Both the position numbers and the translations under genes were made by a program. Below are positions 3,037 through 63,947 of a stretch of DNA of 64,000 nt, piece after piece (position 1 is the first letter of the stretch; every line of letters starts with the position of its first letter). The notes below the pieces were generated by a model, which saw nothing but the letters and a program-made list of their open reading frames with translations, was not told the origin of the DNA and made no database searches. The stretch is taken from IMG/VR virus record IMGVR_UViG_3300028840_006907, positions 224,001-288,000 of that record. The stretch is one strand, 5' to 3'. This DNA comes from a virus.

Positions 3037-3039
3037 AAA

Positions 3040-17923: not shown

Positions 17924-18063
17924 AGTTCTGCACTCTAACTTTTGATGCTTACATAGAGAAAATAGCTCAGTTGGTCAGAGCGCGAGATTTAGGTTCTTGA
18001 AGTCTTCGGTTCAATTCCGAATTTTCTTACCATAAAATTAGCACCTTCAACTTGTGCAGAACT
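17924..18063 (+). ncRNA. structured RNA unit 1: shared closing module enclosing a complete tRNA
   Basis: Perfect 10-bp terminal helix AGTTCTGCAC (17924-33) / GTGCAGAACT (18054-63). Family module just inside it: 5' TCTAACTTTTGATGCTTACA and 3' GCACCTTCAACTT. The cargo is the tRNA at 17956-18032. Confidence 0.6.
17956..18032 (+). tRNA. tRNA, anticodon UAG (Leu by the standard table), class-I shape, CCA encoded
   Basis: Hand-folded cloverleaf. Acceptor GAGAAAA/TTTTCTT (G1-U72). D-arm GCTC-AGTTGGTCA-GAGC. Anticodon arm CGAGA-TTTAGGT-TCTTG (U33, anticodon TAG at 17990-92, G37). 5-nt variable loop AAGTC. T-arm TTCGG-TTCAATT-CCGAA, A73, then CCA. Confidence 0.85.
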
Positions 18064-22250: not shown

Positions 22251-25200
22251 ATGGCCAAGACAAAAAGGAAATGGATTGAGCTGGATTGGTACAATCCCAA
22301 TGCCTTACGTGCACAAGACATACCTTACGATCAAACCGAAAGTGTAAAAGATGCTATAGATAGAGCTGCCTCTGGAGTTCTCGGTCCGACGGGGACCACG
22401 GGTTCGACCGGTTCAACAGGTTCGACGGGTCCAACGGGTCCGACGGGAGCCACGGGTGCGACGGGAGCAGGAATCCAGGGTGAAACCGGAGTCGCTGGAG
22501 TTCAAGGAGCTACCGGAACCGGTGGTGGTGGAGATACTGGTGTCCAGGGTGAGACCGGTTTACCCGGAGCCACAGGAATCCAAGGTACAACCGGTATCCA
22601 GGGAACTACAGGAATCCAAGGTGAAACTGGAATCCAGGGACATACAGGTACAGTTGGAACAACGGGTGTTCAAGGAGAAACCGGTTCTCAGGGTACTACT
22701 GGAATCCAGGGAGAAACTGGAGTAAAAGGTGAAACTGGTATTCAAGGTCAAACCGGTATAGCTGGTGGAGCAGGATTTCCAGGAGCAACTGGAGTCCAGG
22801 GCGAAACCGGAGTCCAAGGAACTACTGGGGTTCAAGGGGAAACCGGGGTTCAAGGAACCACAGGAGTAGCCGGAGCAACCGGAGTCCAGGGAACTACTGG
22901 CGTCCAGGGAACTACTGGCATCCAAGGTGAAACGGGTGTCCAGGGAGATACTGGAGTTGGTGCCACTGGAATCCAAGGAACCACAGGTATCCAGGGTCAA
23001 ACCGGTGTTCAAGGTATCACCGGAGCTTATGGTGGTCCTCCTGGAGAAACTGGTGTCAAGGGAGAAACCGGAGTACAGGGGGCTACTGGAATCCAAGGTC
23101 TTCAAGGATTGCAGGGAACCAAAGGTGAGACCGGAACACAAGGTATTCAAGGCCAGACCGGAGTTCAGGGAGAAACTGGAGTTCAAGGGCAGACTGGTAC
23201 AGGTGCTCCAGGAGCCACTGGAGTTCAAGGGCAGACTGGTATCCAGGGAACCACTGGAATAGGTTTAGGTTCAACAGGAGTAGCGGGAGCAACTGGAATT
23301 CAAGGTACTACCGGAGTTCAAGGTAGGACTGGAGTCCAAGGATTTACCGGAGCTGCTGGTTTAGGTGAAACTGGTATCCAAGGAGCTACCGGAGTCCAGG
23401 GTGCCACAGGTATTCAAGGGACTACTGGTGCAGGAATCCAAGGAGCCACAGGTATTAGTGGTGACACGGGAGTTCAAGGAGCCACAGGAATTAGAGGTAC
23501 TACTGGTGCAGGAATCCAAGGAGCCACGGGGGTTCAGGGCATTCAAGGTCAAACTGGAGCCCAGGGCGAAACCGGAGTCCAGGGTGAAACCGGAATAGAA
23601 GGTTCTCAATTTGCAGGATTTAATTATAAAGCAAAAACAGACAATCAATCTGATACAGATCCTGGTATAGGAAATTTAAAGTGGAGTGCTGTAGCTCAAG
23701 TCACATCTAGTGAGCTTTATGTGGATGATGCTGACGTTAATTCTACGGATCTCAGTAATTTTTACCTCACTTTAAAAGCTGCCGACTCTTTACGTATTGT
23801 TCGTATGGAAGATCCTTCTCAGTATCAGATTTTTAATATAACAAACGTTACTGATAGAACCGGATGGTTCCGTTTATCTGTTACACCTGTTGTTTCAGGT
23901 GGTTCGACTTTTAGTTTAAATGATAATATCATACTGATATTTAGTATATCAGGTCCTAGAGGTCAGACCGGAGTAAAAGGTGAGACTGGAATTCAAGGAA
24001 CTACAGGTGTTGCCGGAGCCACAGGAGTCCAAGGTCAAACTGGAATTCAGGGTCAAACTGGAATCCAGGGCATACAGGGCCAGACTGGAATTCAAGGACA
24101 AACTGGTATTCAAGGTCAAACAGGAATCCAAGGTCAGACAGGTGTTGGCGCTCAGGGTGCTACTGGTGTAGCTGGTCAAACCGGGGTCCAGGGAGAAACT
24201 GGGATACAAGGTCAGACTGGTGCAGGAATCCAGGGAACTACTGGTGTTCAAGGCGTTCAAGGATTAACAGGTGTGCAAGGCCAGACAGGTGCCGGAATCC
24301 AAGGTGAAACCGGAGTCCAGGGTACTCAAGGTTTAACCGGTATACAGGGTCAGACAGGTGCTGGAATCCAAGGAGAGACTGGTGTTCAGGGAAACACTGG
24401 GGCTTTTGGTGGTCCTCCCGGAGAAACTGGTGTTCAGGGAGAAACTGGTGCACAAGGTTTAACTGGAGTCCAAGGTCAAACCGGAGCAGGTATTCAGGGA
24501 GCCACTGGTATTCAAGGAGTTACTGGAGTTCAAGGCCAAACCGGTGCTGGTATTCAAGGAGTCACTGGAATCCAAGGACAAACTGGTATACAGGGTCAGA
24601 CAGGAGTAGCAGGTCAGACCGGAGTCCAAGGAATACAAGGCCAGACAGGAGTAGCAGGTCAGACCGGAGTTCAAGGAATTCAAGGACAAACCGGAATAGC
24701 AGGTCAGACCGGAGTTCAGGGTATACAAGGTCAAACTGGAATTCAAGGGCAGACTGGTGCTGGAATCCAAGGTACAACTGGAGTAGCCGGAGCTACAGGA
24801 GTTCAGGGAATTCAAGGTCAAACAGGAGCTGGAATCCAAGGTACAACTGGAGTCCAGGGAACTACAGGAGTTCAAGGTGAAACTGGTACTGGTATTCAGG
24901 GAGAAACTGGTACGCAAGGTATTCAGGGTCAAACCGGAATTCAGGGACAGACTGGGATTCAAGGTAATACTGGTGTAAAAGGTGAAACCGGAGTTCAGGG
25001 TTTTCCAGGTCCTCAGGGTACGAAAGGTGATACTGGTGCTCAAGGTATTCAAGGTGAGACAGGAACTCAAGGAATTCAGGGCCAAACTGGAGTAGCTGGA
25101 GAAACTGGAGTTCAGGGTCAAACGGGTACTCAAGGAATTCAGGGTCAGACTGGTGTAGCTGGTGCAACTGGTGCGGGAATTCAAGGTCAAACTGGTGTTC

Positions 25201-28200
25201 AAGGAATCCAAGGTCAGACTGGAATCCAGGGGCAAACTGGAGTCCAGGGTGAAACAGGTATAGAAGGATCTTTATGGGCTGGATTTAGTTATAATGCCAA
25301 GACTGATGATCAGTCAGATACAGATCCTGGTACAGGGAATCTTAAATGGAGTACTGTTGCTCAGGTAAATGCGGGTGAACTTTATGTAGATGATACTGAT
25401 CAATATTCCATAGATTTAAGTAATTTTTATCTTACGTTAAAGGCTGGTGATTCTCTTCGAATAATTCGTCAGGAAGACCCTTCTCAATATCAAATTTATA
25501 ATATAACAAATGTTACAGATAGAACAGGTTGGTTCCGTCTTAGTGTGACCTATGTTACTTCAGGTGGATCTACTTTCAGTCTTAATGATAATATTATTCT
25601 TGTTTTTGTTAAAGCTGGAATTCAAGGTCAGACAGGTGCCCAAGGTATTCAAGGTCAAACAGGAGTCCAAGGAATTCAAGGACAGACTGGAGTTCAAGGA
25701 GCCACAGGTACCCAAGGAATTCAGGGGCCACAAGGCCAGATAGGTCTTCAAGGTACTACTGGGGTCCAAGGTGAAACCGGAGTCCAGGGCACACAAGGTC
25801 AGACGGGTATCCAGGGTACAACAGGTGCCGGGATTCAGGGTCAAACCGGAGTCCAGGGAATTCAGGGTCAAACCGGTATTCAAGGTCAAACAGGAGCAGG
25901 TATTCAGGGAGCTACTGGTATTGCTGGTATAGATGGTCAGACTGGAATCCAGGGTGAAACCGGAATTCAGGGCCAAACTGGAGCTGGTATTCAGGGAGCT
26001 ACTGGTATTGCTGGTATAGATGGTCAGACTGGAATCCAGGGTGAAACCGGAATTCAGGGCCAAACTGGAGCTGGAATCCAAGGTGAAACCGGTATCCAAG
26101 GAATTCAAGGATTAACAGGTATTCAAGGTACAACTGGTGCTGGCATTCAGGGAGAAACTGGAGTACAGGGTACACAAGGTCAAACAGGTGTTCAAGGTCA
26201 AACAGGTGCCGGAATTCAGGGTGAAACCGGAGTCCAGGGCACACAAGGTCAAACCGGTATTCAGGGTCAAACTGGCGCTGGTATCCAAGGTGTGACAGGA
26301 ATTCAAGGAATACAAGGACAAACTGGTATCCAGGGTCAAACGGGTGCCGGAATCCAAGGAGAAACCGGAGTCCAGGGAGAAACAGGAATACAAGGTCAGA
26401 CTGGTGCAGGAATCCAGGGAACTACTGGTGTTCAAGGCGTCCAAGGATTAACAGGTGTCCAGGGTCAAACTGGTGCTGGTATTCAAGGTGAAACCGGAGT
26501 CCAGGGTACTCAAGGTTTAACTGGTATACAGGGTCAGACAGGTGCTGGCATTCAGGGAGAAACCGGGGTCCAGGGAGAAACTGGAATACAAGGTCAGACT
26601 GGTGCAGGGATTCAGGGTGTGACAGGAATTCAAGGTCAAACTGGAGTTCAGGGAACTACAGGAATCCAGGGTCAAACAGGTGTTGGGATCCAGGGTGTGA
26701 CTGGAGTTCAAGGAATTCAAGGTCAAACCGGTATTCAAGGTCAAACCGGTATTCAAGGTGAAACCGGAGTGTCTGGAGCTACAGGTATTCAGGGAATTCA
26801 AGGTCAAACCGGAATCCAGGGTCAGACCGGAGTCCAAGGAGAAACAGGTGTACAAGGTTCTACAGGTGTATTAGGTGATCCTAATTGGATAGATTTTGTA
26901 CCTCAAGCATCTGCTCCTAGTCATCAGGAAGCTCGCCTTTTTTATGATTCAACAGACCATTCATTGAGTTATTACAATGAAGAATCTGATGTTACCCTGA
27001 ATTTAGGTCGTGAATTATATATCAGAGTGTATAATGCAACAGTTTCAACAATAACTAACGGTCAAGTAGTTTATGTCACAGGTGTTGCTGCAGGATACCC
27101 CACAATAGATTTAGCAGATGGTAGTGATTTAACTAAGACTAATAATATAGGAGTGGCTACTCATAATATAGAAGCCTCAACATTTGGTTATATCACATTA
27201 TTTGGATTAGTAAGAGATATTAATACTAATGCTTTCAGTGCTGGTGATGAAGTTTGGTTAAGTGAAAGTACTCCAGGTGGTTACCAGTCTTTTGCAGGTA
27301 CATATGCCGTTAAAATAGGTTATGTTGTTGTTTCAGATACATTAAATGGTTCAATAATGGTAGCTATGGGTGATACGGAAGCTACTATAGCTGGATTGAA
27401 TGATGTAAATCTTACTAGTATCTCTGATGGTCAGTATTTACAATGGGACTCGGATTCTACTAAATGGGTTAATGTTTCTGAAAGTCCTCAAGGTGATACA
27501 GGTATCCAAGGAGCAACTGGAGTTCAAGGAATTCAAGGAACTACAGGAGTTCAAGGAGCAACTGGAGTTCAAGGTATTCAAGGAACCACAGGAATTCAAG
27601 GACAGACCGGAGTTCAGGGTGAAACCGGAATTCAAGGAACTACAGGAGTCCAGGGAGAAACTGGTACTGCAGGAATAGACGGTCAGACAGGAGTTCAGGG
27701 TGAAACCGGTATTGCAGGAATAGATGGTCAGACAGGAGTTCAAGGTACTACCGGAGTTCAGGGAATTCAAGGAACTACAGGAATTCAGGGAGAAACCGGT
27801 ACTGCAGGAATAGACGGTCAGACAGGAGTTCAAGGTGAAACTGGAACTGCAGGAATAGACGGTCAGACAGGAGTTCAAGGTACTACCGGAGTTCAAGGAA
27901 CCACTGGAATTCAAGGTACTACCGGAATTCAGGGAACTACTGGAATTCAGGGAGAAACCGGTACTGCAGGAATAGACGGTCAGACAGGAGTCCAAGGTAC
28001 TACTGGGATTCAGGGGGAAACCGGAGTCCAAGGTACCACAGGGATTCAGGGAGAAACCGGAGTCCAAGGTACTACTGGAATTCAGGGAGAAACTGGTGTT
28101 TTTGGGATTGTCAATTATATCGATTATGAACCTCAAGATACAGTTCCTTCTCATTTAGAAGGTCGTACCTTTTATGACAGTACAGATCATTCTTTAAGTT

Positions 28201-31200
28201 ATTATTTAGATTCAACCGATGTGACTCTTAATATAGGGCAAGAATTTCTTATTCGAGTTGAGAATAAATCGGGTGGAGCAATAGTAGATGGTCAAGCAGT
28301 CTACGTCACTGGTTCTAATGAAGATGTCCCTGAAGTAAATCTAGCAAAAGCAGATTCTTCAAATACTTCTGAGGTTTTAGGTATTGCTACTCAGGTAATT
28401 GAAAATGATACGCAAGGTTATGTTACTTGTGCTGGAAAAATACGTAACTTAAATACTAGTGATTGGACTTCAGGAGATTTACTTTATTTATCTGATAAAA
28501 CTGCTGGTGCATTGACCAATGTTCAACCTTCAGGTAATAGTAATATATTTAGTGTTCATATAGGTCTTGTTATAAGATCACATGCTAGCGATGGTGTTAT
28601 TTTTGCTCACCGTCATATTCCTCATTACCGTCCAGAACAGTTAAGAGATACCACTGCATCTTCTTTAACTGATGGTCAGGTTTTATCTTATGAAAGTAGT
28701 ACAGATAGATGGATAAATAGCACTTTACCTTCAATTACACAATCTATAGATAGAAATGAACCTGGTGGTTTTGTCAACAGAACAGACAGTACAGTAGGTT
28801 TTACTGAATCTACTCGTACTTTGCAAGTTACAACCGCGAGTTCTTATGATATCTATCAGGCTGGTACTAAATATACAATTAATGCAACCGATTCTACTCA
28901 AATTCCTGATACAAATGGTTTGCACTATATTTATTTCGATACCACTAATATGACTGTACAAACGAATCCAGCACTTCAGAATATTCTAGATATCATATAT
29001 GAAAAATCTCTTATTGCTGCGATATATTGGAACTCTTCCGATGATAGAGCTATTATAACCAATGATGAACGTCATGGTATTGTGATGGATGGTAGGACCC
29101 ATTCTTATCTTCATACTACTAGAGGAACTCAATATACATCACCAGGCTTAACTCCTGGAGATTTTGATATTGATGGAGCTGGAAGTAATGACAGTGCCAG
29201 TCAAATGAGTATTTCTGATGGGCAAATACAAGATGAAGATATTTGGTTTGAAATTCAAGATGGTAATCCTCAAATATTAGATCCTATAGCTGAAATTCCT
29301 GTTATTTATAAAGATGGTGCAGGAGCTGAATGGAAAATAAAATATTGGACAGCTTCATGGGCATCTGCAACCTCTTATCCTACTGGTACTATAATAAGAG
29401 AGAGTAATTCTTATTTTAGATCTAGTGGAGGAACTTCAGGTGGTGCTCTTCCTGCTTTTTCTGCAAATCGTGAACCAGGTGATACTATTGTTGATAATAC
29501 AATTACGTGGACAAATGTTGGTTCTCCATTGTCTCCTGTGATTAATTTTGTGGGAGGTAATTATAGATTAGCATATAATCAGTTTACTGGTGGGGCATGG
29601 CAACAAACCGAAGTAACAAATGGTAATTATGTTCTTACTCATATATTTGCTACGACTGATATTTTTCATCCTATTATGGCTATTCAAGGTGAGAATGAGT
29701 ATGGTAATGTTGCTGCAGCTAGAGCAGGAGCTTTAACAGAACTAGATAGTATTGTATTGTCTGGATTGGATTTTCCTGAATCAATATTTCTTGCTACAGT
29801 TATTTTTCAGACTAATAATACTTATACTAATCAAGTAAAAGCTCGAACTATCTCAACTGATACAGGTGATGATTTTATAGATTGGAGATTTTCTCAAATC
29901 AATGCAGCCTCAACAGGTGATCAAGGTCCTCAAGGAGAAACTGGTGTTCAAGGGGTACAGGGTGAAACCGGAGTACAGGGTGAAACCGGAGTAGCAGGAG
30001 CAACTGGTGTTCAAGGAATACAAGGCCAGACTGGAATCCAGGGAGAAACTGGAATTCAAGGAGCCACAGGTGTTGCCGGAGCAACTGGTGTTCAAGGGAT
30101 CCAAGGTCAGACTGGAATCCAAGGAGAAACTGGAATTCAAGGAACTACGGGAGTAGCAGGAGCAACTGGTGTCCAAGGAATCCAAGGAGAAACCGGAATT
30201 CAAGGAGAAACCGGAATTCAAGGAGCAACTGGTGTTCAAGGTATTCAAGGAACAACCGGAGTTCAAGGAATTCAGGGAACCACAGGAGTTCAGGGTGAAA
30301 CCGGAGTCCAAGGAATTCAAGGAACCACAGGAATTCAAGGAATTCAAGGAACCACAGGAGTTCAGGGTGAAACCGGAGTCCAAGGAATTCAAGGAACCAC
30401 AGGAATTCAGGGTGAAACCGGAATTCAAGGAATTCAAGGAACCACAGGAGTTCAGGGAACCACAGGAGTTCAAGGAATACAAGGAACCACAGGAGTTCAG
30501 GGTGAAACCGGAGTCCAAGGAATTCAAGGAACCACAGGAGTTCAGGGAGAAACTGGAGTTCAGGGGATCCAGGGTCAGACTGGAATTCAGGGAGAAACTG
30601 GAGTAGCCGGAGCAACTGGAGTACAGGGCCAAACAGGAGTTCAAGGAATCCAAGGTCAAACTGGTATACAGGGAGAAACCGGAGTAGCCGGAGCAACCGG
30701 AGTACAGGGTCAAACAGGAGTTCAAGGAATCCAAGGACAAACTGGTGTTCAAGGAGCAACCGGAGTAGCCGGAGCTACTGGAGTTCAGGGAGAAACAGGA
30801 ATTCAAGGAATCCAAGGACAAACTGGTATACAGGGAGAAACCGGGGTAGCCGGAGCAACCGGAGTACAGGGCCAAACAGGAGTTCAAGGAATTCAAGGAA
30901 ATACTGGTGTTCAAGGAGCAACCGGAGTTCAAGGAACTCAAGGAGATACTGGAGTTCAAGGAACAACTGGTGTTCAAGGTGAAACCGGTTTAGAAGCAGC
31001 TTATCATTTCTTTGCGGATCAGTTGGATAGTCCTAATAATGCTGATTGGGCTGTTAATGCTCTTGCTCCAGCTTCTGCTGATACTACAAATAATGCTCTT
31101 GTTGTACGTCGGTTTGATGATACGGATGAAGAAGGTGTAGGATTTATGGTAAATATTCCAACAGGAAGGACAAATATAGTATTTGGATTTAAGAGTAGGG

Positions 31201-31487
31201 CTGAAACAGCTCCTGGATCGGCGCATAATGTAAAACCAAAGGTATATGTCAGGGAAATACCTGATAATACTACTGTGGAAAGTTGGTCTTCTGGTTATGA
31301 TTTAAATGCTTTAAGTATGCCAACAAATACCTATTTTCAATATGATTCTCAATCTGTAGCTTTTACCGCTCTTGATATTACAGGTGGGAGATTGGCTCAA
31401 TTTGAAGTAACAAGAGATCATACGGGTGTAACTCCTGATTTAACTGGTGACTGGGACTTGCTAGAGCTTAATGTTTCATTTACCTAG
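22251..31487 (+). CDS. giant modular collagen-like virion fibre/fibril protein
   Basis: AAGGAG RBS; 3,078 aa. Five G-X-Y tracts (about nt 22383-23600, 23950-25260, 25616-26870, 27486-28100, 29916-30990). They are separated by two copies of a ~118-aa module (FAGFNYKAKTD...DRTGWFRLSVT), two copies of a second module (DPNWIDFVPQASAPSHQEARLFYDSTDHSLSYY / IVNYIDYEPQDTVPSHLEGRTFYDSTDHSLSYY), one ~400-aa unique globular region and a ~165-aa C-terminal domain. Confidence 0.9.
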   Translation: MAKTKRKWIELDWYNPNALRAQDIPYDQTESVKDAIDRAASGVLGPTGTTGSTGSTGSTGPTGPTGATGATGAGIQGETGVAGVQGATGTGGGGDTGVQGETGLPGATGIQGTTGIQGTTGIQGETGIQGHTGTVGTTGVQGETGSQGTTGIQGETGVKGETGIQGQTGIAGGAGFPGATGVQGETGVQGTTGVQGETGVQGTTGVAGATGVQGTTGVQGTTGIQGETGVQGDTGVGATGIQGTTGIQGQTGVQGITGAYGGPPGETGVKGETGVQGATGIQGLQGLQGTKGETGTQGIQGQTGVQGETGVQGQTGTGAPGATGVQGQTGIQGTTGIGLGSTGVAGATGIQGTTGVQGRTGVQGFTGAAGLGETGIQGATGVQGATGIQGTTGAGIQGATGISGDTGVQGATGIRGTTGAGIQGATGVQGIQGQTGAQGETGVQGETGIEGSQFAGFNYKAKTDNQSDTDPGIGNLKWSAVAQVTSSELYVDDADVNSTDLSNFYLTLKAADSLRIVRMEDPSQYQIFNITNVTDRTGWFRLSVTPVVSGGSTFSLNDNIILIFSISGPRGQTGVKGETGIQGTTGVAGATGVQGQTGIQGQTGIQGIQGQTGIQGQTGIQGQTGIQGQTGVGAQGATGVAGQTGVQGETGIQGQTGAGIQGTTGVQGVQGLTGVQGQTGAGIQGETGVQGTQGLTGIQGQTGAGIQGETGVQGNTGAFGGPPGETGVQGETGAQGLTGVQGQTGAGIQGATGIQGVTGVQGQTGAGIQGVTGIQGQTGIQGQTGVAGQTGVQGIQGQTGVAGQTGVQGIQGQTGIAGQTGVQGIQGQTGIQGQTGAGIQGTTGVAGATGVQGIQGQTGAGIQGTTGVQGTTGVQGETGTGIQGETGTQGIQGQTGIQGQTGIQGNTGVKGETGVQGFPGPQGTKGDTGAQGIQGETGTQGIQGQTGVAGETGVQGQTGTQGIQGQTGVAGATGAGIQGQTGVQGIQGQTGIQGQTGVQGETGIEGSLWAGFSYNAKTDDQSDTDPGTGNLKWSTVAQVNAGELYVDDTDQYSIDLSNFYLTLKAGDSLRIIRQEDPSQYQIYNITNVTDRTGWFRLSVTYVTSGGSTFSLNDNIILVFVKAGIQGQTGAQGIQGQTGVQGIQGQTGVQGATGTQGIQGPQGQIGLQGTTGVQGETGVQGTQGQTGIQGTTGAGIQGQTGVQGIQGQTGIQGQTGAGIQGATGIAGIDGQTGIQGETGIQGQTGAGIQGATGIAGIDGQTGIQGETGIQGQTGAGIQGETGIQGIQGLTGIQGTTGAGIQGETGVQGTQGQTGVQGQTGAGIQGETGVQGTQGQTGIQGQTGAGIQGVTGIQGIQGQTGIQGQTGAGIQGETGVQGETGIQGQTGAGIQGTTGVQGVQGLTGVQGQTGAGIQGETGVQGTQGLTGIQGQTGAGIQGETGVQGETGIQGQTGAGIQGVTGIQGQTGVQGTTGIQGQTGVGIQGVTGVQGIQGQTGIQGQTGIQGETGVSGATGIQGIQGQTGIQGQTGVQGETGVQGSTGVLGDPNWIDFVPQASAPSHQEARLFYDSTDHSLSYYNEESDVTLNLGRELYIRVYNATVSTITNGQVVYVTGVAAGYPTIDLADGSDLTKTNNIGVATHNIEASTFGYITLFGLVRDINTNAFSAGDEVWLSESTPGGYQSFAGTYAVKIGYVVVSDTLNGSIMVAMGDTEATIAGLNDVNLTSISDGQYLQWDSDSTKWVNVSESPQGDTGIQGATGVQGIQGTTGVQGATGVQGIQGTTGIQGQTGVQGETGIQGTTGVQGETGTAGIDGQTGVQGETGIAGIDGQTGVQGTTGVQGIQGTTGIQGETGTAGIDGQTGVQGETGTAGIDGQTGVQGTTGVQGTTGIQGTTGIQGTTGIQGETGTAGIDGQTGVQGTTGIQGETGVQGTTGIQGETGVQGTTGIQGETGVFGIVNYIDYEPQDTVPSHLEGRTFYDSTDHSLSYYLDSTDVTLNIGQEFLIRVENKSGGAIVDGQAVYVTGSNEDVPEVNLAKADSSNTSEVLGIATQVIENDTQGYVTCAGKIRNLNTSDWTSGDLLYLSDKTAGALTNVQPSGNSNIFSVHIGLVIRSHASDGVIFAHRHIPHYRPEQLRDTTASSLTDGQVLSYESSTDRWINSTLPSITQSIDRNEPGGFVNRTDSTVGFTESTRTLQVTTASSYDIYQAGTKYTINATDSTQIPDTNGLHYIYFDTTNMTVQTNPALQNILDIIYEKSLIAAIYWNSSDDRAIITNDERHGIVMDGRTHSYLHTTRGTQYTSPGLTPGDFDIDGAGSNDSASQMSISDGQIQDEDIWFEIQDGNPQILDPIAEIPVIYKDGAGAEWKIKYWTASWASATSYPTGTIIRESNSYFRSSGGTSGGALPAFSANREPGDTIVDNTITWTNVGSPLSPVINFVGGNYRLAYNQFTGGAWQQTEVTNGNYVLTHIFATTDIFHPIMAIQGENEYGNVAAARAGALTELDSIVLSGLDFPESIFLATVIFQTNNTYTNQVKARTISTDTGDDFIDWRFSQINAASTGDQGPQGETGVQGVQGETGVQGETGVAGATGVQGIQGQTGIQGETGIQGATGVAGATGVQGIQGQTGIQGETGIQGTTGVAGATGVQGIQGETGIQGETGIQGATGVQGIQGTTGVQGIQGTTGVQGETGVQGIQGTTGIQGIQGTTGVQGETGVQGIQGTTGIQGETGIQGIQGTTGVQGTTGVQGIQGTTGVQGETGVQGIQGTTGVQGETGVQGIQGQTGIQGETGVAGATGVQGQTGVQGIQGQTGIQGETGVAGATGVQGQTGVQGIQGQTGVQGATGVAGATGVQGETGIQGIQGQTGIQGETGVAGATGVQGQTGVQGIQGNTGVQGATGVQGTQGDTGVQGTTGVQGETGLEAAYHFFADQLDSPNNADWAVNALAPASADTTNNALVVRRFDDTDEEGVGFMVNIPTGRTNIVFGFKSRAETAPGSAHNVKPKVYVREIPDNTTVESWSSGYDLNALSMPTNTYFQYDSQSVAFTALDITGGRLAQFEVTRDHTGVTPDLTGDWDLLELNVSFT
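25899..26072 (+). repeat. exact 87-bp tandem duplication inside the collagen-like gene
   Basis: 25899-25985 and 25986-26072 are identical base for base (ggtattcagggagctactggtattgctggtatagatggtcag...ggccaaactggagct). Each copy encodes GIQGATGIAGIDGQTGIQGETGIQGQTGA. Confidence 0.9.
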
Positions 31488-40788: not shown

Positions 40789-41262
40789 ATGGATGTTTTA
40801 TTTGATGTTTATGATTCTGTTGGGGGTGTAGATGTTGATAGTGCTGTAACAGTATTATTTGATACTTCGAGATATATATGTAATAATGTGTCTTTATTAT
40901 CAGGAGAAATTAATATCTTACCTAATTCTCATAGTATAATTCCTCCAGACAATGATATCTTATTACTTATGGCAAAAGTTACAATAGATGCTGTTAGTGG
41001 GAATAATCAAACTCAAGCAAAGATATGGCTCGAAGTTGACACAGGTTCAGGTTATGTAGTGGTACCTGGAACTGATAGTTATTCTTATAGTATTTCAAAT
41101 AGTGTGGGTCATGGTACTGCTATTATAAATACCACATATCAAATTAGTAAATTAAATAAGATTATTTGTAAATTTAGAGTTAGAGCAGAAAAATCAGTGG
41201 GGAATAATTCTTTAAGTACACTAGCTCAAGCTAGTAATTTCATAGGTTTAATTAACGAATGA
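40789..41262 (+). CDS. hypothetical protein
   Basis: 157-aa ORF with AGAGGA RBS, lying between the two barrel-like paralogues. No motif recognised. Confidence 0.6.
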   Translation: MDVLFDVYDSVGGVDVDSAVTVLFDTSRYICNNVSLLSGEINILPNSHSIIPPDNDILLLMAKVTIDAVSGNNQTQAKIWLEVDTGSGYVVVPGTDSYSYSISNSVGHGTAIINTTYQISKLNKIICKFRVRAEKSVGNNSLSTLAQASNFIGLINE

Positions 41263-42782: not shown

Positions 42783-43141
42783 TAACTGAAATTGATGATG
42801 ATAGTAAAGACATAAAGATAAAATTAGGAAATTTATTTGAAAAATATGAAAATCTTTATCGGGAAGGGAATAGACAGTTTAGAACAGAGAGAATAGCTTC
42901 TGCTGGGTCAATGGATGGTCTGGAAGAATTTCGTCGTTTGATGCTTATTGTAAAAAGAAATAAGGATGTAGTGGCCTCGCTAATGCGGGGTATAGCTAAT
43001 TTTAGGTCTATTTCAAATTTTAAGTTTGTAGAAGAGGAAGTAGAAATTTCAAAACCGAAACCAAAGAAAACAAAGAAAGCTACTCCTGAAAAAGTGATCA
43101 TACCTATACCAATAGTAGCGGAGGAATTTAATGGCGAATAA
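42761..43141 (+). CDS. hypothetical protein
   Basis: 126-aa ORF overlapping the portal start by 11 nt. Has a Lys-rich C-terminal segment. Confidence 0.6.
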   Translation: MPDFNKLITEIDDDSKDIKIKLGNLFEKYENLYREGNRQFRTERIASAGSMDGLEEFRRLMLIVKRNKDVVASLMRGIANFRSISNFKFVEEEVEISKPKPKKTKKATPEKVIIPIPIVAEEFNGE

Positions 43142-46100
43142 ACGAATAAGAGTTGTAACAGCGCAAGATAATGTACCGAAACGGGCAACTCGAAGAAAAG
43201 TAGTCAGCAGGGATACTAATCCTAAGGTGACAAATCTTACAGATAATGAAAAAAGAGCCAGACGGATTGCTACAACAACATCTATGGGATTCGGTCTTCG
43301 TTCTGCAAGTGATATTGTAAATAGCAGTGAAGCAAACTTTTACTCCCCCCAATTAAGTACTGATTTTCTTGAGAAGCCACAGAATCTACGTGAACGTAGA
43401 GCCTTTTATAGATTCTTTTATAATACGAATGAAATTATCGGACAATCTATTGATATTCATTCCACATTACCTCTTTCGAAATTGCGTCTCGTTCCTCCAA
43501 AAGGGAGAAATAAACATCAGAACAATTACGTTTTTAAGTTTTTCCAAAAGATGTGTGATGAAATGAAGCTCTTTAAAACACTTATTGAGATAACTCATGA
43601 ATACTTTCTTTTTGGTAATTGCTTGGCTAAGTATGCCGAGGTAAAGACTCCCTTTGGGTATAAGGAAGCGAAAGAGATAGAAGTAGGTGACTTCTTATTG
43701 ACAGATAAAGGGCGCTATAGGAAAGTCTTGAAGAAATGTGTAAGACCTTCTGAAAATGTTCTCAAAGTTAAATGTTGGAAAGATTTTAGGGAATTACCTG
43801 TTTCTGAAGAACATCCTATAGAAATATTAAAAGATGATGGCTTTGTTTTTGCCCAAGCTGAGGAATTGTCCTTAAACGACTATATCCGAGTTACTTGGCC
43901 TACTGAAATATCTGATAAAGAATATGTTCCTTTTGAATTTACAGATAAATATACAAAAGTGGAAAATGGCTATGAGTTAAAATTTGAAGTACTGCGTACC
44001 AGAAATCCTCATGCTTTCCGTGCTCGAAAAGAATTATTATCATGGCTAAGTTCTTTATCTAAACCAGTAATAAGGACAAGAAAACAGTTGTCCGAAGATT
44101 TTGATGTTCCTCTTTCCACATTGAATAATGTGATTTATAAACTTGGGAAAGAACTTGATGTAAAATTTCATGAAAGAATAGGTGCTTCAGGTTTTCAAAA
44201 AGGTTCTCAAGTAAAATGGTTTCCTATTGAGGACATAGAAGTCACGGATTCCTATAGTATTCATAAAACCCTATTTTTAGATGCTATTGATGGAATTGAT
44301 ATCAATAATGATTTTGCGTATCTTGCAGGATATTGGTTGGGAGATGGCACTTTGGCTCGTGATTCGCAAAGAGGGACATGGGGTCGTGGTTTGTGGCAAA
44401 TTTCAGTAGACCAGGAATTTGAAGGTTTAAATCGGATACGAAGTATTTTACATAATTTTTTTGGTTCTGGTAATGTGATAGAATGGAATTCGGGTAATCT
44501 ACTTTATTTAAAAGTTATCTCAAATCCTGCTTTTTTAGAATGGTGGGCTGAAAATTTTGGTGAAACTTCTTTCGGTAGAAATTATAAAAGAATTCCTGAA
44601 TGGTTTATAAAACTTCCTATGGAAAAACTTCAAAATTTTCTGGCAGGTTTGATAGATTCAGATGGTTGTATTAGTGTGAGTGGTGAAAATCAGAAATGTA
44701 TAACGAATATCTCAATGGCGTCTCGAAATATAATGGATTCTGTAAGAGACATAACTTTAAAATGTGGTGTTGTAGTGAATTACAACGAAGGAACTGAAAG
44801 AGAAGTTACTTTACCACAGGGAGACAAATGTTTCTCAAAAAAAATGTATACTGTAACAGCCTCAGATGAAGAATCCTGTAAAATTTTAACTCAATATGCC
44901 ACAAAAAGTATACCTGTAGATGCCCAATTCTCAGAAATGGGAAGATATTGGATAAGAACTGATTCAGGTTTAGCCTTCAAAATTAAGTCTATAAAAACAG
45001 AAGAATATAATGATTTAGTATACAATTTTGAAGTAGAAGAAGACCATACCTATCAAGTAGCTGGTTTTAGTACTCATAATTGCTTTATTTTTGCTGAAGA
45101 AGATGATTGGAAGGAAGGTATAACTACCGAAAACATAGGACAGAAAAAAGAAGAGGCCAAACAACGTTCCCAGCTCCTTAAAGATAAATTTGATATTAAG
45201 GATAAGAATCCTCTTTATAAAGGATGGAAAAAGCTTCTTATACTTCCTCCTGACCAGGTTAGGGTTCGTAAACTTCCTCTTACTGATGAGGTAGCAATTG
45301 AATATATGCCTGATCCGGAAACTCGAAAATTTCTGACTTCTGATATACCAATTGATCCTACAGATCCTACAAGAAGGTTAGACTATTCTATTTCTAATGA
45401 ATTGCGGGAAAAAGTACGTCAAAGTGGGGTTATACCTTTGGATACCGATCCTTATACAGGTTCACATGTTTTTCATCTGGCAAGAAAGAAATCACAATAT
45501 GAGCCTCTTGGTGTATCTATCGTTGAGCGTTGCATAAATACTCTTGTTTTAATGGATAAATTGAGACAGGCTCAGACATCGATTGCATCGCGTCACATGA
45601 CTCCTATGCGTGTTGTATGGGCTGAGGACTTAAATTCGGATGATGTCGATAATTTACGTGAGCAGGTTGATCTTGCTTTAGTAGATCCTGATTTCAGTAT
45701 TATTGCCAATTATGAAATTCACTGGGAAGAAATGGGATCGAATGGCCGTTTATTAGATGTAGAAGCGGAAATGGAAAGCTCATTAAATAGATTATTTGCC
45801 GGATTAGGTGTGACTCGGGAAATGTTAACTGGTGAAGGTACTTATACAGGGAGTAGAGTTTCATTAGAAATAATGAATACTATGTATCTTCTTTTCCGTG
45901 AAGTGCTCCAGGATTATATAGAAAATACATTGTTTAAGCCTATAGCTAAAAAGAAGGGTTTTATAGAATATGATGAATATGGTAATGAGACACTTCTTTA
46001 TCCGAAAATCAGTTTTACCCGATTGGCTATTAGAGATAATGAGCAATATTTTGACGCAGCCTTTCAGTTATATCAGAAGGGTTCAATTTCCATCGATCTT

Positions 46101-46484
46101 ATTTTGGATATTCTTAATATTGATCCTGATGCGACCAGGGAAAAGATTGAACAAGATCTGTTTACTGTTAATGATAGTCTTTTCAATGAAATGATGAGAA
46201 ACCTTTATACAAATGTGGCTGCCCCACTTGTAGAGGAAACTAATGTTACTGAGAAATTGGCTAAATATCTTCATTTAGAAAAGACTGAAAAACCTGAGGC
46301 CACAGAAGGTGAATCTCGATTTAGTTCTGTTAATGGAAAGGATTACAGGAAAAAGCTTTCAAAAGTCATGAAATACTTTATTGATAATCCTGAAAAATTA
46401 AATTCCATTTTTGCAAAGAATGGACAGTTAAAACCTAAACAAGCGAGAAATAATCAATGCGTTGTCGCTCAATCCCGGAATTAA
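43131..46484 (+). CDS. portal (head-tail connector) protein interrupted by an intein
   Basis: GGAGGA RBS; 1,117 aa, or 630 aa once residues 164-650 (the intein) are removed. Extein blocks resemble T7-gp8-type connectors from memory: LFKTLIEITHEYFLFGN|CFIFAEE versus LFEALKQLVVAGNVLLYLPE, and YEPLGVSIVERCINTLVLMDKLRQAQ versus GESYGRSYIEEYLGDLRSLENLQEA. It heads the capsid gene block. Confidence 0.75.
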   Translation: MANKRIRVVTAQDNVPKRATRRKVVSRDTNPKVTNLTDNEKRARRIATTTSMGFGLRSASDIVNSSEANFYSPQLSTDFLEKPQNLRERRAFYRFFYNTNEIIGQSIDIHSTLPLSKLRLVPPKGRNKHQNNYVFKFFQKMCDEMKLFKTLIEITHEYFLFGNCLAKYAEVKTPFGYKEAKEIEVGDFLLTDKGRYRKVLKKCVRPSENVLKVKCWKDFRELPVSEEHPIEILKDDGFVFAQAEELSLNDYIRVTWPTEISDKEYVPFEFTDKYTKVENGYELKFEVLRTRNPHAFRARKELLSWLSSLSKPVIRTRKQLSEDFDVPLSTLNNVIYKLGKELDVKFHERIGASGFQKGSQVKWFPIEDIEVTDSYSIHKTLFLDAIDGIDINNDFAYLAGYWLGDGTLARDSQRGTWGRGLWQISVDQEFEGLNRIRSILHNFFGSGNVIEWNSGNLLYLKVISNPAFLEWWAENFGETSFGRNYKRIPEWFIKLPMEKLQNFLAGLIDSDGCISVSGENQKCITNISMASRNIMDSVRDITLKCGVVVNYNEGTEREVTLPQGDKCFSKKMYTVTASDEESCKILTQYATKSIPVDAQFSEMGRYWIRTDSGLAFKIKSIKTEEYNDLVYNFEVEEDHTYQVAGFSTHNCFIFAEEDDWKEGITTENIGQKKEEAKQRSQLLKDKFDIKDKNPLYKGWKKLLILPPDQVRVRKLPLTDEVAIEYMPDPETRKFLTSDIPIDPTDPTRRLDYSISNELREKVRQSGVIPLDTDPYTGSHVFHLARKKSQYEPLGVSIVERCINTLVLMDKLRQAQTSIASRHMTPMRVVWAEDLNSDDVDNLREQVDLALVDPDFSIIANYEIHWEEMGSNGRLLDVEAEMESSLNRLFAGLGVTREMLTGEGTYTGSRVSLEIMNTMYLLFREVLQDYIENTLFKPIAKKKGFIEYDEYGNETLLYPKISFTRLAIRDNEQYFDAAFQLYQKGSISIDLILDILNIDPDATREKIEQDLFTVNDSLFNEMMRNLYTNVAAPLVEETNVTEKLAKYLHLEKTEKPEATEGESRFSSVNGKDYRKKLSKVMKYFIDNPEKLNSIFAKNGQLKPKQARNNQCVVAQSRN
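43620..45080 (+). mobile_element. intein with LAGLIDADG homing-endonuclease domain (487 aa) in the portal gene
   Basis: Begins with Cys (CLAKYAEVKT...VGDFLL). Block B is SEEHPIEI. Two LAGLIDADG motifs: LAGYWLGDGTLA and LAGLIDSDGCIS. Ends VYNFEVEEDHTYQVAGFSTHN, followed by the +1 Cys (CFIF). In frame, 1,461 nt. Confidence 0.9.
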
Positions 46485-49420: not shown

Positions 49421-50989
49421 ATGGCAATGCTAAAATACGGCTCGGCTGTTATAATCGATTCTGAAGTAAGCACTGATCAGTGGTCTAAGAGTGTTTGTTG
49501 CGGTAATAAAGGTAAACATTCTTGTGGTGAAGGTAAATGCCGGGTCAAGATTGCTAAAAATGTATTTGCTAAATATACTCCTGAGAAATACTTATTGAGC
49601 CATTGTACGATTATAGCTGCAGTTGATACTGAATTAGCTAATCCTTCTGATCCTAAAAGTGATTATTATATCCATCCTAATTTTTCCAAATATGTAAATA
49701 ATAATGGTGATGCATGGTCAAAGCAGATGCTTGCTTCATGTTACCGTTCTTTTATAGGTTCCCATAATTACTTGGAACATGTACAAATACCCGAACTCAG
49801 TAAGGGGAGGGTAATTGATGCTATTCTGAGAGAAGTCCCTATAGGACGAGATAAACAGGGTAAAGAGTTAACAACCTATTATGTTGATATTCTTGTTGCT
49901 ACTGAGAGAAAGCATAAACAGTTAATAGCTGATATTCAATCAAAGAAGCTTAATTCTCTTAGTATGGGATGTAAAATAGCTTATAGCATATGTACTAAAT
50001 GTGGTAAAAAGGCAGTAGATGAAACAGAGGCTTGTCAGCATATTCGTTTTGAAAAGAACAATATGTTTTATGATAATAATGGTGTTCAACGTAAGGTAGC
50101 TGAATTGTGTGGCCATTATTCTGAGCCTGAGAGTGTTACTTTCATCGATGCTTCATGGGTAAAAAATCCTGCATTTACTGGTGCTGTAATTCGAAATATC
50201 GTTAATCCACCAGAAAACATCTTGGCTAAAATTGAGGAAGCTAGTAAAAAAGAAAGTTATCTGATTCAAGAAGATGATTTTCTTAAGGCTGCTCATAAAA
50301 TAGCCCAGGATCCTCCAGCAGAAGAAGAACCTCCTGCAGAGGAAGAGACTGCTCCTGATACTGAGGCACCAGAAGCTCCTCCTGAAGAAGCTACTCCAGC
50401 CGATGAAGGTGGTGCTGTTGAAGAGCCTCCTGCCGAGTTACCTGAGGTAGATCAGAATAATGTCAAGACTTGGAAAAATGAGGTAAAGAAAAAGGTCCTT
50501 CAAGAATTGGGTGATGAATTAGTTGAAGAGATGACAAAAGAAGATGATATGGGACCTCGTGAATTAGAAACTTTGGATGATAGTTTAATTCAACCAACCG
50601 CATCTCAAGCATTAAAGCGTATGTGGGTATTAAAGGAAGGTTGGAATAAATTCCTGAAGGAAACGACAAATGGTTTAAGTAAAGATAATCATGATCGGTT
50701 AAAATTCGGTGCTTTCATAATGTTGAATAGCAATGATCCTAAAGTTTTATCTCATTATGGTTATAACCGTAGGGATTTTTTAGCAGTGATGTCTTACATA
50801 GATCAATTTTTTAAGAATCGTTTACCAGTAAGAGTGAAGAAAGCAGTAGCTAAGCTCAATGGTACGAAGGATTTATCATTAAAAGATACTGTACATTCTT
50901 TACAAAAGCTTTCGGGAAAAAGGCTTGCTGAAAAAGAAATTAAGAAGTCTTTAGTGTGGTTAAAATTAATGGATTTGTACAAAGAATAA
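49421..50989 (+). CDS. head-module protein, possible prohead protease fused to an acidic linker and C-terminal domain
   Basis: 522 aa with AAGGA RBS. The N-terminal ~250 aa has SHNYLEH and KKLNSLSMGC blocks, reminiscent of HK97-type prohead protease His and Ser blocks (weak, from memory). It also has a CxxC...C..H cluster (CTKCGKKAVDETEACQH), then a PAEEEPPAEEETAPDTEAPEAPPEE linker. Confidence 0.4.
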   Translation: MAMLKYGSAVIIDSEVSTDQWSKSVCCGNKGKHSCGEGKCRVKIAKNVFAKYTPEKYLLSHCTIIAAVDTELANPSDPKSDYYIHPNFSKYVNNNGDAWSKQMLASCYRSFIGSHNYLEHVQIPELSKGRVIDAILREVPIGRDKQGKELTTYYVDILVATERKHKQLIADIQSKKLNSLSMGCKIAYSICTKCGKKAVDETEACQHIRFEKNNMFYDNNGVQRKVAELCGHYSEPESVTFIDASWVKNPAFTGAVIRNIVNPPENILAKIEEASKKESYLIQEDDFLKAAHKIAQDPPAEEEPPAEEETAPDTEAPEAPPEEATPADEGGAVEEPPAELPEVDQNNVKTWKNEVKKKVLQELGDELVEEMTKEDDMGPRELETLDDSLIQPTASQALKRMWVLKEGWNKFLKETTNGLSKDNHDRLKFGAFIMLNSNDPKVLSHYGYNRRDFLAVMSYIDQFFKNRLPVRVKKAVAKLNGTKDLSLKDTVHSLQKLSGKRLAEKEIKKSLVWLKLMDLYKE

Positions 50990-61865: not shown

Positions 61866-63947
61866 ATGAAACCAACAATTTCTCTTGTAATGGTAGTCTA
61901 TAATGTCAGTAAGACACTTGATAGATGTCTTAAAGGTTTTAGTCAGTGTTCGGATGAAATAGTAGTTGTTATAGATAATAAAACAACGGATAATAGTGAA
62001 GAAATTGCTCGAAAATATACCGATAAAATTTATCATTTCGATTGGATAGATGACTTTTCTGCCGCGAGAAATTTCTCTTTTGATAAGTGCACATGTGATT
62101 TTATCCACTGGTGCGATGGTGATGATTACATTCTTCCTGAAGATATAAAAATGATAAATGATCTAGATCTTACTGATTGGGATATGGTTGTTATGGATTA
62201 TGTCTATGCTCAGGATGAGTTTGGAAATGATAAATCGGTTGTCCCCAGAGAGAGAATTATAAGAAGATCTCTGGGATTGAAATGGGAGGGTGAAATACAT
62301 GAGTGTATTTTACTTCAAGGAAGAGTAAAACATACCCATATCCGAACTTATCATGATAAACAGCATGGGACTTCTGAACGTAATCTTGCCATATTAGAAA
62401 GAATTACTGAGAAAAATCCTAGTTCAAGAAATCTCTATTATCTCGGTAAAGAATATTATGATATGGGTAGAATTGATGAGGCAATTAATTATCTTTTGAA
62501 ATTTCTTGATTGTCCTGATGCCTTTTGGGAAAATGCTTATCAGGCTCATTGTAAATTGGCTATGGCTTATTTACAGAAAAAAGATGAGACTAGATTTAAA
62601 AAGCATATTTTTGAATCGATTAAGATGGAAGACCGTCAGGCAGAACCTATATATTTTCTCGCTTTATATTATATGAATAAAGGTCAATGGGATAGAGCTA
62701 TTCAGTGGTTTGAAGTATGTGCTCATATGGAGCATCCTGCAGATCTTCTAGGTGCTCATTTACCAGAATATTATACATGGTTACCTAATTTAAATCTTTG
62801 TGTTTGTTATAATGCTATTGGTGAAATTGAGAAAGCATACGAATGTAATGAAAAAGTTTTGAAATACCGTTCAAAAGATCCTCGTGCTGTCAGTAATAGA
62901 GAAATTCTTAAAAATGCTTTAAACTCAAAAAAGAAGAAAGAAGATGGTCAAGGTAAAAAACTGAATCTCGGTTGTGGTGGTAAACCTGTAGAGGGTTTTG
63001 TCAGTGTTGATATATTTAAAAGTCCCAAAATTGATGAAGTTTTTGATATGGGTGATATTCCGTATAAAGATAATACTATAGGAGCTATTTATAGTGAGCA
63101 TGCTTTAGAACATGTTTCTTTTGAACGAGTAGAAGAAGTTCTTAAAGAATGGTTTCGAGTTTTACAACCAGGGGGAGAACTTTTCCTTTATATGCCTGAT
63201 TTTGAAAATTGTTGTAAAAGTTATATAAATGCTCCGATTGACCATCCTCATTTTATGAATACTAAAGCTTGGTTTAAATATACTGTCTATGGAATTCAAA
63301 AGAGTCAGGGCGGGGAACCAGATGAAGCCCAGTTCCATCTTAGTGGCTTTTCAAAAGAGGAGATAAAAATAGTATTAGAACGGAATGGTTTTGTTATTGA
63401 TAAAGTAGAAAATTATGGTGGGGAAGGTCAGAAGCCTGATTATGGAACTCCTTCTATGGAAATCCATGCCCGAAAGCCTGAAGTAAAAAAGGAAATAATA
63501 CCTGTCAAGAAAGAGTCTGTGAAAGTGGTAGAGAAACCGAAACCTGTGAAAAAGGATTCGGGTATAAAGGTAGCCTGGATCGGGACTGAGAATTGGGTAG
63601 CTGCTCAGACAAGAATCAGAATATTAAATGTGCATCAATGGTTAAATGACCATGGTATAGAATCGGTGGTAACAAATAACTGCAAGGATGTAATCACGCA
63701 AGATTTTGATGTAGCCATTGTCGGAAAGAGATTTGATGAAGAAATTTATAATGGTGTCAAGGAATTGAAGAAGTCCAATAAAATAGTCTATTGCGATTTA
63801 TGTGAGGATGTTGTTAATTGGGCCTGGGTAAATGAGATAATGGTTGAATGTGATAAAGTTATCTGTTGTTCTAATACTCTTGCTGAGAGGGTGAAGCCAG
63901 TGAATCCTAATGTTGTAGTTATTGAAGATGCCTACGAGATGGTATAA
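61866..63947 (+). CDS. multidomain glycan-modifying enzyme (GT2, TPR, SAM-methyltransferase, C-terminal GT-like domain)
   Basis: 693 aa. GT2 motifs ISLVMVVYNVSKTLDRCL...IVVVIDNKTTDNS and WCDGDD. TPR-like LYYLGKEYYDMGRIDEAINYLLKFL. Methyltransferase motifs KLNLGCGGKPVEGFVSVD and LQPGGELFLYMPD. The GT2-TPR part is collinear with 19016-21643. Confidence 0.75.
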   Translation: MKPTISLVMVVYNVSKTLDRCLKGFSQCSDEIVVVIDNKTTDNSEEIARKYTDKIYHFDWIDDFSAARNFSFDKCTCDFIHWCDGDDYILPEDIKMINDLDLTDWDMVVMDYVYAQDEFGNDKSVVPRERIIRRSLGLKWEGEIHECILLQGRVKHTHIRTYHDKQHGTSERNLAILERITEKNPSSRNLYYLGKEYYDMGRIDEAINYLLKFLDCPDAFWENAYQAHCKLAMAYLQKKDETRFKKHIFESIKMEDRQAEPIYFLALYYMNKGQWDRAIQWFEVCAHMEHPADLLGAHLPEYYTWLPNLNLCVCYNAIGEIEKAYECNEKVLKYRSKDPRAVSNREILKNALNSKKKKEDGQGKKLNLGCGGKPVEGFVSVDIFKSPKIDEVFDMGDIPYKDNTIGAIYSEHALEHVSFERVEEVLKEWFRVLQPGGELFLYMPDFENCCKSYINAPIDHPHFMNTKAWFKYTVYGIQKSQGGEPDEAQFHLSGFSKEEIKIVLERNGFVIDKVENYGGEGQKPDYGTPSMEIHARKPEVKKEIIPVKKESVKVVEKPKPVKKDSGIKVAWIGTENWVAAQTRIRILNVHQWLNDHGIESVVTNNCKDVITQDFDVAIVGKRFDEEIYNGVKELKKSNKIVYCDLCEDVVNWAWVNEIMVECDKVICCSNTLAERVKPVNPNVVVIEDAYEMV

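Follow-up and report, generated by a model that had tools for sequence, protein, structure and literature searches.

Does the long portal gene of IMG/VR virus record IMGVR_UViG_3300028840_006907 encode a single oversized structural protein, or a portal interrupted by a mobile element that is spliced out of it? The gene lies in a stretch of 64,000 nucleotides (positions 224,001 to 288,000 of that record), which was analyzed as a whole and is called the window here. It occupies positions 43131..46484 of the plus strand and, according to the list of open reading frames, encodes a precursor of 1117 amino acids followed by a stop codon. Our analysis confirmed that this precursor contains a real, complete intein of 487 residues. 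Very probably, it is a canonical class-1 intein with a double-motif LAGLIDADG homing endonuclease, situated in the portal gene of a huge phage and capable of both splicing and homing.

The precursor gene consists of three parts, all on the plus strand. The N-extein (43131..43619) comprises portal residues 1-163 and ends in ...THEYFLFGN. It is followed by the intein (43620..45080), of class 1 (Cys1 ... His-Asn) and covering precursor residues 164-650; translation places its start, CLAKYAEV, at residue 164 (nucleotide 43620) and its end, GFSTHN, at residue 650 (nucleotide 45080). The C-extein (45081..46484) supplies residues 164-630 of the spliced portal, the first of which is the +1 Cys (CFIFAEEDDW...). 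The spliced product thus has 630 residues, with the predicted junction ...FGN-CFIF.... The original prediction had given the same span, length and FGN/CFIF flanks, which proved exact by translation, and had described a complete LAGLIDADG intein that starts with Cys1, carries block B and ends in His-Asn before a +1 Cys, all of which could be located. When the intein is removed from the nucleotide sequence, the 'healed' window reads ...CTTTTTGGTAAT|TGCTTTATTTTTGCT... across the empty site, and the intein-free allele P0001 reads ...TTATTTGGTAAC|GCATTCCTGTTTTGT... at the same place.

The reading frame is unbroken and there is no step in GC content at either intein junction, so base composition gives no evidence of a recent foreign origin. 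The precursor was found identical over all 1117 residues on 6 contigs, including the Joint Genome Institute (JGI) metagenome contig Ga0180437_10000019 (388,651 bp). None of 50,697 phage records matched the complete gene in megablast, and hence there is no close cultured relative among them. When all six reading frames of the window were translated and searched with a hidden Markov model of the allelic inteins, this copy alone was recovered. The window therefore holds no second related intein, and the terminase gene TerL (1144-3036) is uninterrupted.

To place the insertion among homologues, the spliced portal was compared with 5.8 billion proteins, which yielded 1572 matches at E ≤ 1e-10. The site was scored in the best 120 of these 1572 together with the window, 117 of them near full length. 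Among the latter, 97 have no insert and align straight through the site, and the remaining 20 are interrupted by an intein, in each case at GN|C as in the window; a further 8 intein-bearing alleles, interrupted at the same codon, were found in IMG/VR. Every one of the 20 intein-bearing alleles has Cys directly after the site, compared with 23 of the 97 intein-free ones, where this residue is otherwise Ala (45), Thr (10), Val (9), Ser (7), Gly (2) or Ile (1). This difference matches the prediction of a required +1 nucleophile. The Gly-Asn preceding the site is invariant in 61 aligned intein-free homologues and present in 109 of the 117 near-full-length proteins; H156, L160, G162 and N163 of the N-extein are likewise invariant in the intein-free homologues. 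The nearest of these, P0001, also keeps the gene order of the window. Two checks proposed with the original prediction came out in its favor: in the alignment to intein-free homologues (up to 85% identical) exactly the 487 residues are missing, with precise rejoining at GN|A/C, and the junction residues are kept in all 22 allelic inteins that were aligned with that of the window. Judged from these alignments, the intein insertion is in frame and clean.

The interrupted protein had been called a portal, and several searches bear this out. The spliced product of 630 residues matches PHROG 16240, 'portal protein', at 4e-31, and PHROG 9232 and 2833 match too. With the same query, tblastn retrieved one uninterrupted piece of an unannotated 485-kb uncultured phage (46% identity) as well as the annotated portals of the 309-kb Tunturiibacter phage Tunturi_5 and the 498-kb Bacillus phage G (gp14). 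None of the Pfam portal families matched the spliced product at E ≤ 0.1 and the portal profile found no PDB sequence at E ≤ 1. Because the sequence search of the PDB gave nothing, the portal fold was demonstrated through structure prediction, for which P0001 was used; this homologue has no intein and matches the spliced product over its full length (100%) at 85% identity. All top-50 PDB matches of the P0001 model in Foldseek are portals (HFTV1 at 3.7e-8, HK97, T4, phage 812 and lambda). Sequence profiles and modeled fold concur that the host protein is a tailed-phage portal. In the model, the insertion point falls on a helix-to-strand junction within a high-confidence part, with block means of 86-89 for the predicted local distance difference test (pLDDT) around the site. 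The Tunturi_5 portal (2869-5316) owes its length of 815 residues to a long Ala/Gly/Asp/Pro-rich low-complexity insert, slightly downstream of the window's intein position, that is no intein; length changes are thus tolerated in this part of the portal.

Within the intein, four successive regions can be distinguished, again all on the plus strand. The N-terminal Hint lobe (43620..43919, intein residues 1-100) aligns with the gp41-1 intein, is modeled at a pLDDT of 93-97 and contains block A with Cys1 and block B, SEEHPIEI (nucleotides 43803-43826), whose S-E-E-H corresponds to intein residues 62-65. An extra middle domain follows at 43920..44294 (residues ~101-225), with approximate boundaries. 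The LAGLIDADG homing-endonuclease domain (44295..44939, residues ~226-440), recognized by Pfam and Foldseek, holds motif 1, FAYLAGYWLGDGT (..LGDGT; nucleotides 44313-44351), and motif 2, LQNFLAGLIDSDGC (..IDSDGC; nucleotides 44628-44669), and the acidic residue is kept in both. The C-terminal Hint lobe (44940..45080, residues 441-487) comprises block F, VYNFEVEEDHTYQV (nucleotides 45018-45059), and block G, GFSTHN. Across the 23 portal inteins aligned at this site, i.e., that of the window and 22 allelic ones, Cys1, the block B His, the block F His, His-Asn and the +1 Cys are present and conserved. In the allelic alignment, H65 of block B, H486 and N487 are nearly invariant and block B of the relatives reads T/S-x-E-H.

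Pfam recognized the endonuclease through LAGLIDADG_3 (PF14528; 9.8e-12, 45.4 bits against a cut-off of 22.5) and Hom_end (PF05204; 2.6e-6, 27.9 bits against a cut-off of 21.1). The AlphaFold2 model of the intein, built from 20 aligned sequences, reached a mean pLDDT of 89.1. When it was compared with the PDB using Foldseek, PI-SceI ranked first (E 1e-17, probability 1.00), followed by PI-TkoII, the TliVMA and PhoVMA inteins and PI-PfuI, with E values ranging from 1e-17 to 3e-11; the free-standing LAGLIDADG enzymes I-DmoI, I-OnuI and I-AniI matched at E ~1e-6. Among the predicted viral structures in BFVD, the model matched intein-bearing RNR, ThyX, terminase and polymerase proteins. The profile matches and those of the model to the PDB are well outside what chance would give. 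From motifs, profiles and predicted fold, and apart from one Pfam cut-off that is taken up below, the element is assigned to the class-1 inteins with a Hint fold and a monomeric, double-motif LAGLIDADG endonuclease.

The middle domain, a segment of ~125 residues that separates the endonuclease from the N-terminal Hint lobe, is found only in alleles of ~490 residues, as seen from gaps in the alignment. In the AlphaFold2 model it runs through a helix (130-145), a strand (150-153), two helices (154-161 and 165-179) and two further strands (184-187 and 197-200). A Pfam search with seven members and a profile search of the PDB gave only sub-threshold matches to Z-alpha, HTH_11 and IclR-type domains (E 0.05-1), and a literature search for inteins combining a winged helix with LAGLIDADG found nothing relevant. 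From its topology alone the domain is predicted to be winged-helix-like, and it is probably an accessory DNA-binding module.

Taking the splicing steps from established intein chemistry, the 1117-residue precursor would be translated and undergo an N-S acyl shift at Cys1. The +1 Cys would then attack in a trans-thioesterification, after which cyclization of Asn487, assisted by His486, would release the intein, and an S-N shift would restore the native portal of 630 residues. The freed intein would act as a site-specific endonuclease: when related phages infect the same cell, it would cut those of their portal alleles that lack the intein, with the winged-helix-like domain probably adding DNA contacts. 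Repair of the cut allele would copy the intein in, i.e., accomplish homing. An unspliced precursor is unlikely to assemble, because the insert directly follows the invariant Gly-Asn at a helix/strand junction in a well-modeled part of the portal; it is a reasonable inference that such a precursor cannot form the portal dodecamer and that capsid assembly depends on splicing. This copy is a complete and probably functional intein.

The 23 aligned portal inteins and their empty counterparts show how the element behaves across the clade. The class of ~490 residues (487-491, including the window) has both Hint lobes, the middle segment and an endonuclease with GDG and DSDG intact. In the class of ~355 residues (351-363) the middle segment is missing, the Asp of motif 1 is replaced in 6 of 6 alleles (GNG, GSQ or NKG), and the DSDG of motif 2 is degraded in most (DSS, DSC, DSN, DSM or a truncated DSD). 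Alleles of 150-185 residues are mini-inteins that have no endonuclease. In a neighbor-joining tree of the exteins, alleles of all three classes occur interspersed with empty ones, and P0001, the nearest relative of the window, is itself empty. Empty sites, full-length elements, elements with a degraded endonuclease and mini-inteins appear to represent different stages of homing, and the scatter of alleles, as far as sequences tell, is that of the classic cycle of invasion, decay and loss. Alleles P0007 and P0004 share 91% identity in the flanking extein and only 40% in the intein, compared with 89% and 75% for the window and P0004. This discordance suggests that the site was invaded more than once, on separate occasions, although the same picture could result from very unequal rates. 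Outside portal genes, the most similar inteins match weakly (E 1e-11 to 1e-6); they reside in glycosyltransferases, a cytosine methylase and, in the case of P0131, a host protein that we read as likely a terminase.

The alternative that survives best is an intein that still splices and whose endonuclease is dead or inert. It would be a vertically inherited passenger, no longer homing and retained solely because it could not be lost imprecisely without destroying an essential gene. The sister alleles of ~355 residues with degraded motifs and the minis clearly took that path. Consistent with it, the intein is diverging faster than the extein (75% versus 84% identity with P0004; 61% versus 75% with P0038), and a search of the homologue sets and IMG/VR for divergent portals with a nearly identical intein came up empty, leaving no hint of very recent homing. 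Against it stand the acidic residues of both LAGLIDADG motifs, kept here as in all alleles of ~490 residues, and the P0007/P0004 discordance, which points to transfer between alleles. The pattern of substitution is a further argument. Between the window and its closest allele, P0004, the proportions of nonsynonymous and synonymous differences (pN and pS) are 0.15 and 0.65 for the whole intein and 0.18 and 0.62 for the endonuclease part. Since synonymous sites are saturated, the corresponding ratios of nonsynonymous to synonymous rates (dN/dS) are rough: ~0.16 in the endonuclease, ~0.13 in the middle domain and ~0.05 in the N-terminal Hint lobe. The comparison clearly points to purifying selection on all parts of the intein, and values of ~0.13-0.16 in the endonuclease and middle domains are unexpected for a functionless segment of 340 residues. 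The original prediction had called the endonuclease active or recently active; intact catalytic motifs and a pN far below pS favor this indirectly. On balance, we consider the inert passenger unlikely, if the most serious competitor of a homing intein.

Some observations weigh against a canonical intein that splices and homes. The Pfam family Intein_splicing (PF14890) matches with an E value of 3.4e-8 but scores 33.9 bits, under the gathering cut-off of 35.8. This match covers residues 39-487 and runs across the nested endonuclease; in our view it narrowly misses a curated threshold, with no bearing against membership among the inteins. Block B opens with Ser in place of the usual Thr, by comparison with the relatives a conservative variant, and position 4 of block F, usually Asp, is Asn. 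Both residues are conserved family-wide or vary conservatively. The P0001 model has a pLDDT of only 66.6 overall, which is moderate. To these are added the saturated synonymous sites and the missing near-identical intein described above, as well as the fact that we infer both that splicing occurs and that the endonuclease still cuts.

A second alternative builds on the canonical intein and gives it a role. Here the intact endonuclease and the winged-helix-like module would serve as a weapon in co-infection, cutting the portal gene of intein-free competitors (marker exclusion), and/or splicing through Cys1 and Cys+1 would be conditional, e.g., redox-gated, and would time the supply of assembly-competent portal. 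We regard this as improbable. If true, the module between Hint lobe and endonuclease would constitute a distinct intein architecture that is kept by selection.

Much less probable still is a non-splicing Hint/LAGLIDADG insertion that persists as a permanent extra domain of the mature portal. The Intein_splicing score slightly under its cut-off would fit such an insertion, whereas the conservation of every catalytic position in the 23 aligned portal inteins speaks against it. The strict +1 Cys of the intein-bearing alleles would be expected only if the nucleophile is needed. Most relatives lack the insert altogether, and it sits directly behind the invariant Gly-Asn, at the helix-to-strand junction in a high-confidence part of the portal model. 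Finally, although the sequence comes from a metagenome assembly, a spurious feature created during assembly or annotation, such as a chimeric contig or two genes wrongly joined into one read-through, is hardly credible given the identical 1117-residue protein on 6 contigs, allelic inteins at the same codon in independent JGI, NCBI, ENA, Logan and IMG/VR assemblies, the continuous frame and the uniform GC content across the junctions.

The genomic setting agrees with the identity of the gene. Besides TerL, the window contains a prohead-protease-like open reading frame (49421-50989) as a head-morphogenesis neighbor, and it also encodes giant collagen-repeat fiber proteins and a helicase. The relatives of the portal, the genes of the window and the 388,651-bp contig together identify the genome as that of a huge uncultivated tailed phage (~389 kb contig), distantly related to the phage G group.

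Several other features of the window were recorded. The open reading frame at 22251-31487 (+) encodes 3078 residues that are mostly collagen triple-helix repeats (Pfam Collagen 6e-225, 21 stretches) and presumably form a giant virion fiber. Directly after the terminase gene, a frame of 2337 codons (3040-10053, +) combines a BNR/YCF48-like propeller with collagen repeats and matches to tail-fiber PHROGs. Two frames, 19016-21643 (+) and 61866-63947 (+), encode fusions of a family-2 glycosyltransferase, TPR repeats and an S-adenosylmethionine (SAM)-methyltransferase, the first with an additional heptosyltransferase-like domain; both may modify the virion or the host surface. A lone tRNA-Leu (anticodon TAG; 17956-18032, +) lies between the helicase-side genes and the structural block. 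Between genes of 576 and 310 codons, a frame of 157 codons (40789-41262, +) is missing from the otherwise collinear intein-free relative and represents a small indel.

For annotation, the consequence is that the 1117-codon frame should be read as a 630-residue portal plus a 487-residue mobile element, and that the intein has to be removed before portal trees of huge phages are built. Screens based on length or on Pfam will otherwise mislabel such genes, as illustrated by the GenBank record of Eggerthella phage LE2-3 described below. At one codon of an essential structural gene, the intein homing cycle appears to be represented in all its stages within a large clade of uncultivated phages, which offers a natural dataset for intein gain, endonuclease decay and loss and implies co-infections between these huge phages. 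As potential tools, the locus provides a family of related Cys1/Cys+1 inteins, including minis of 150-185 residues, and a candidate rare-cutting LAGLIDADG enzyme with a putative DNA-binding module. The finding is a further example of a known phenomenon and leaves the current understanding of inteins unchanged. What it adds is modest: the full homing cycle at one codon and an extra, probably DNA-binding, module in the largest alleles.

Inteins in phage portals have been described before. Kelley et al. (2016, PMC5050341) list an intein, 'PORT', in the portal of 6 mycobacteriophages belonging to cluster C1. A survey of PhagesDB actinophages from 2025 (10.1101/2025.01.02.630785) counts the portal protein among the previously reported intein hosts and distinguishes five separate portal-intein groups in trees that were computed from inteins whose LAGLIDADG endonuclease domain is canonical. 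The original prediction was fair in stating that phage inteins are reported mostly from replication and packaging enzymes; its view of the portal as an unusual host does not hold, given these publications, and the host is documented and no surprise to a specialist. In several genome papers where inteins and a portal protein are both mentioned, the interrupted gene proved to be that of a terminase or polymerase and not the portal gene. The actinophage elements resemble that of the window in interrupting a phage portal and in their sporadic occurrence among related phages. Searches by tblastn with the extein or the intein retrieved no actinophage portal or intein at E ≤ 1e-5, from which we conclude that portal family, host range and intein lineage differ from those of the window.

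A closer parallel is found in Eggerthella phage LE2-3 (MW679026), whose portal (QXJ36669.1, 1073 residues) is a distant homologue with 19% identity (E 3e-14). It, too, is interrupted by a LAGLIDADG intein (Cys1...His-Asn|Cys), which in its endonuclease and C-terminal parts is 25% identical to that of the window (E 1e-15). This intein has only 398 residues and, judged by its length, no middle domain, the match being limited to residues 226-487 of the window's intein. Its insertion point lies 58 residues upstream of the site used here and is equivalent to Q105|S106 in the spliced portal of the window; by this position, the intein is an independent invasion of another conserved motif. The same second insertion point, after ...NPVMRA / ...HHMVPT, is occupied in LE2-3 (2236-5457) and in IMG/VR UViG_3300037067_006514 (2501-3655). 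GenBank calls the LE2-3 protein just 'portal protein', and its intein is unannotated.

In overall build, the window's intein corresponds to PI-SceI, PI-TkoII, PI-PfuI and TliVMA/PhoVMA, in which a double-motif LAGLIDADG endonuclease is likewise nested in a Hint domain. These inteins differ in sequence (11-15% identity) and reside in eukaryotic or archaeal enzymes. PI-SceI and PI-PfuI have accessory DNA-binding regions, to which the extra domain of the window would be analogous, although the winged-helix-like module between N-terminal Hint lobe and endonuclease found no match to the accessory modules of this group. On the phage side, the cyanophage-like gp41-1 intein (PDB 6qaz and 6riz) is a naturally split mini-intein without an endonuclease and has a helicase-type host protein. 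Its N-terminal lobe aligns with that of the window, including the EEH of block B, at a marginal E value of 0.005 (6qaz), and both inteins belong to class 1 and come from phage-type sequences.

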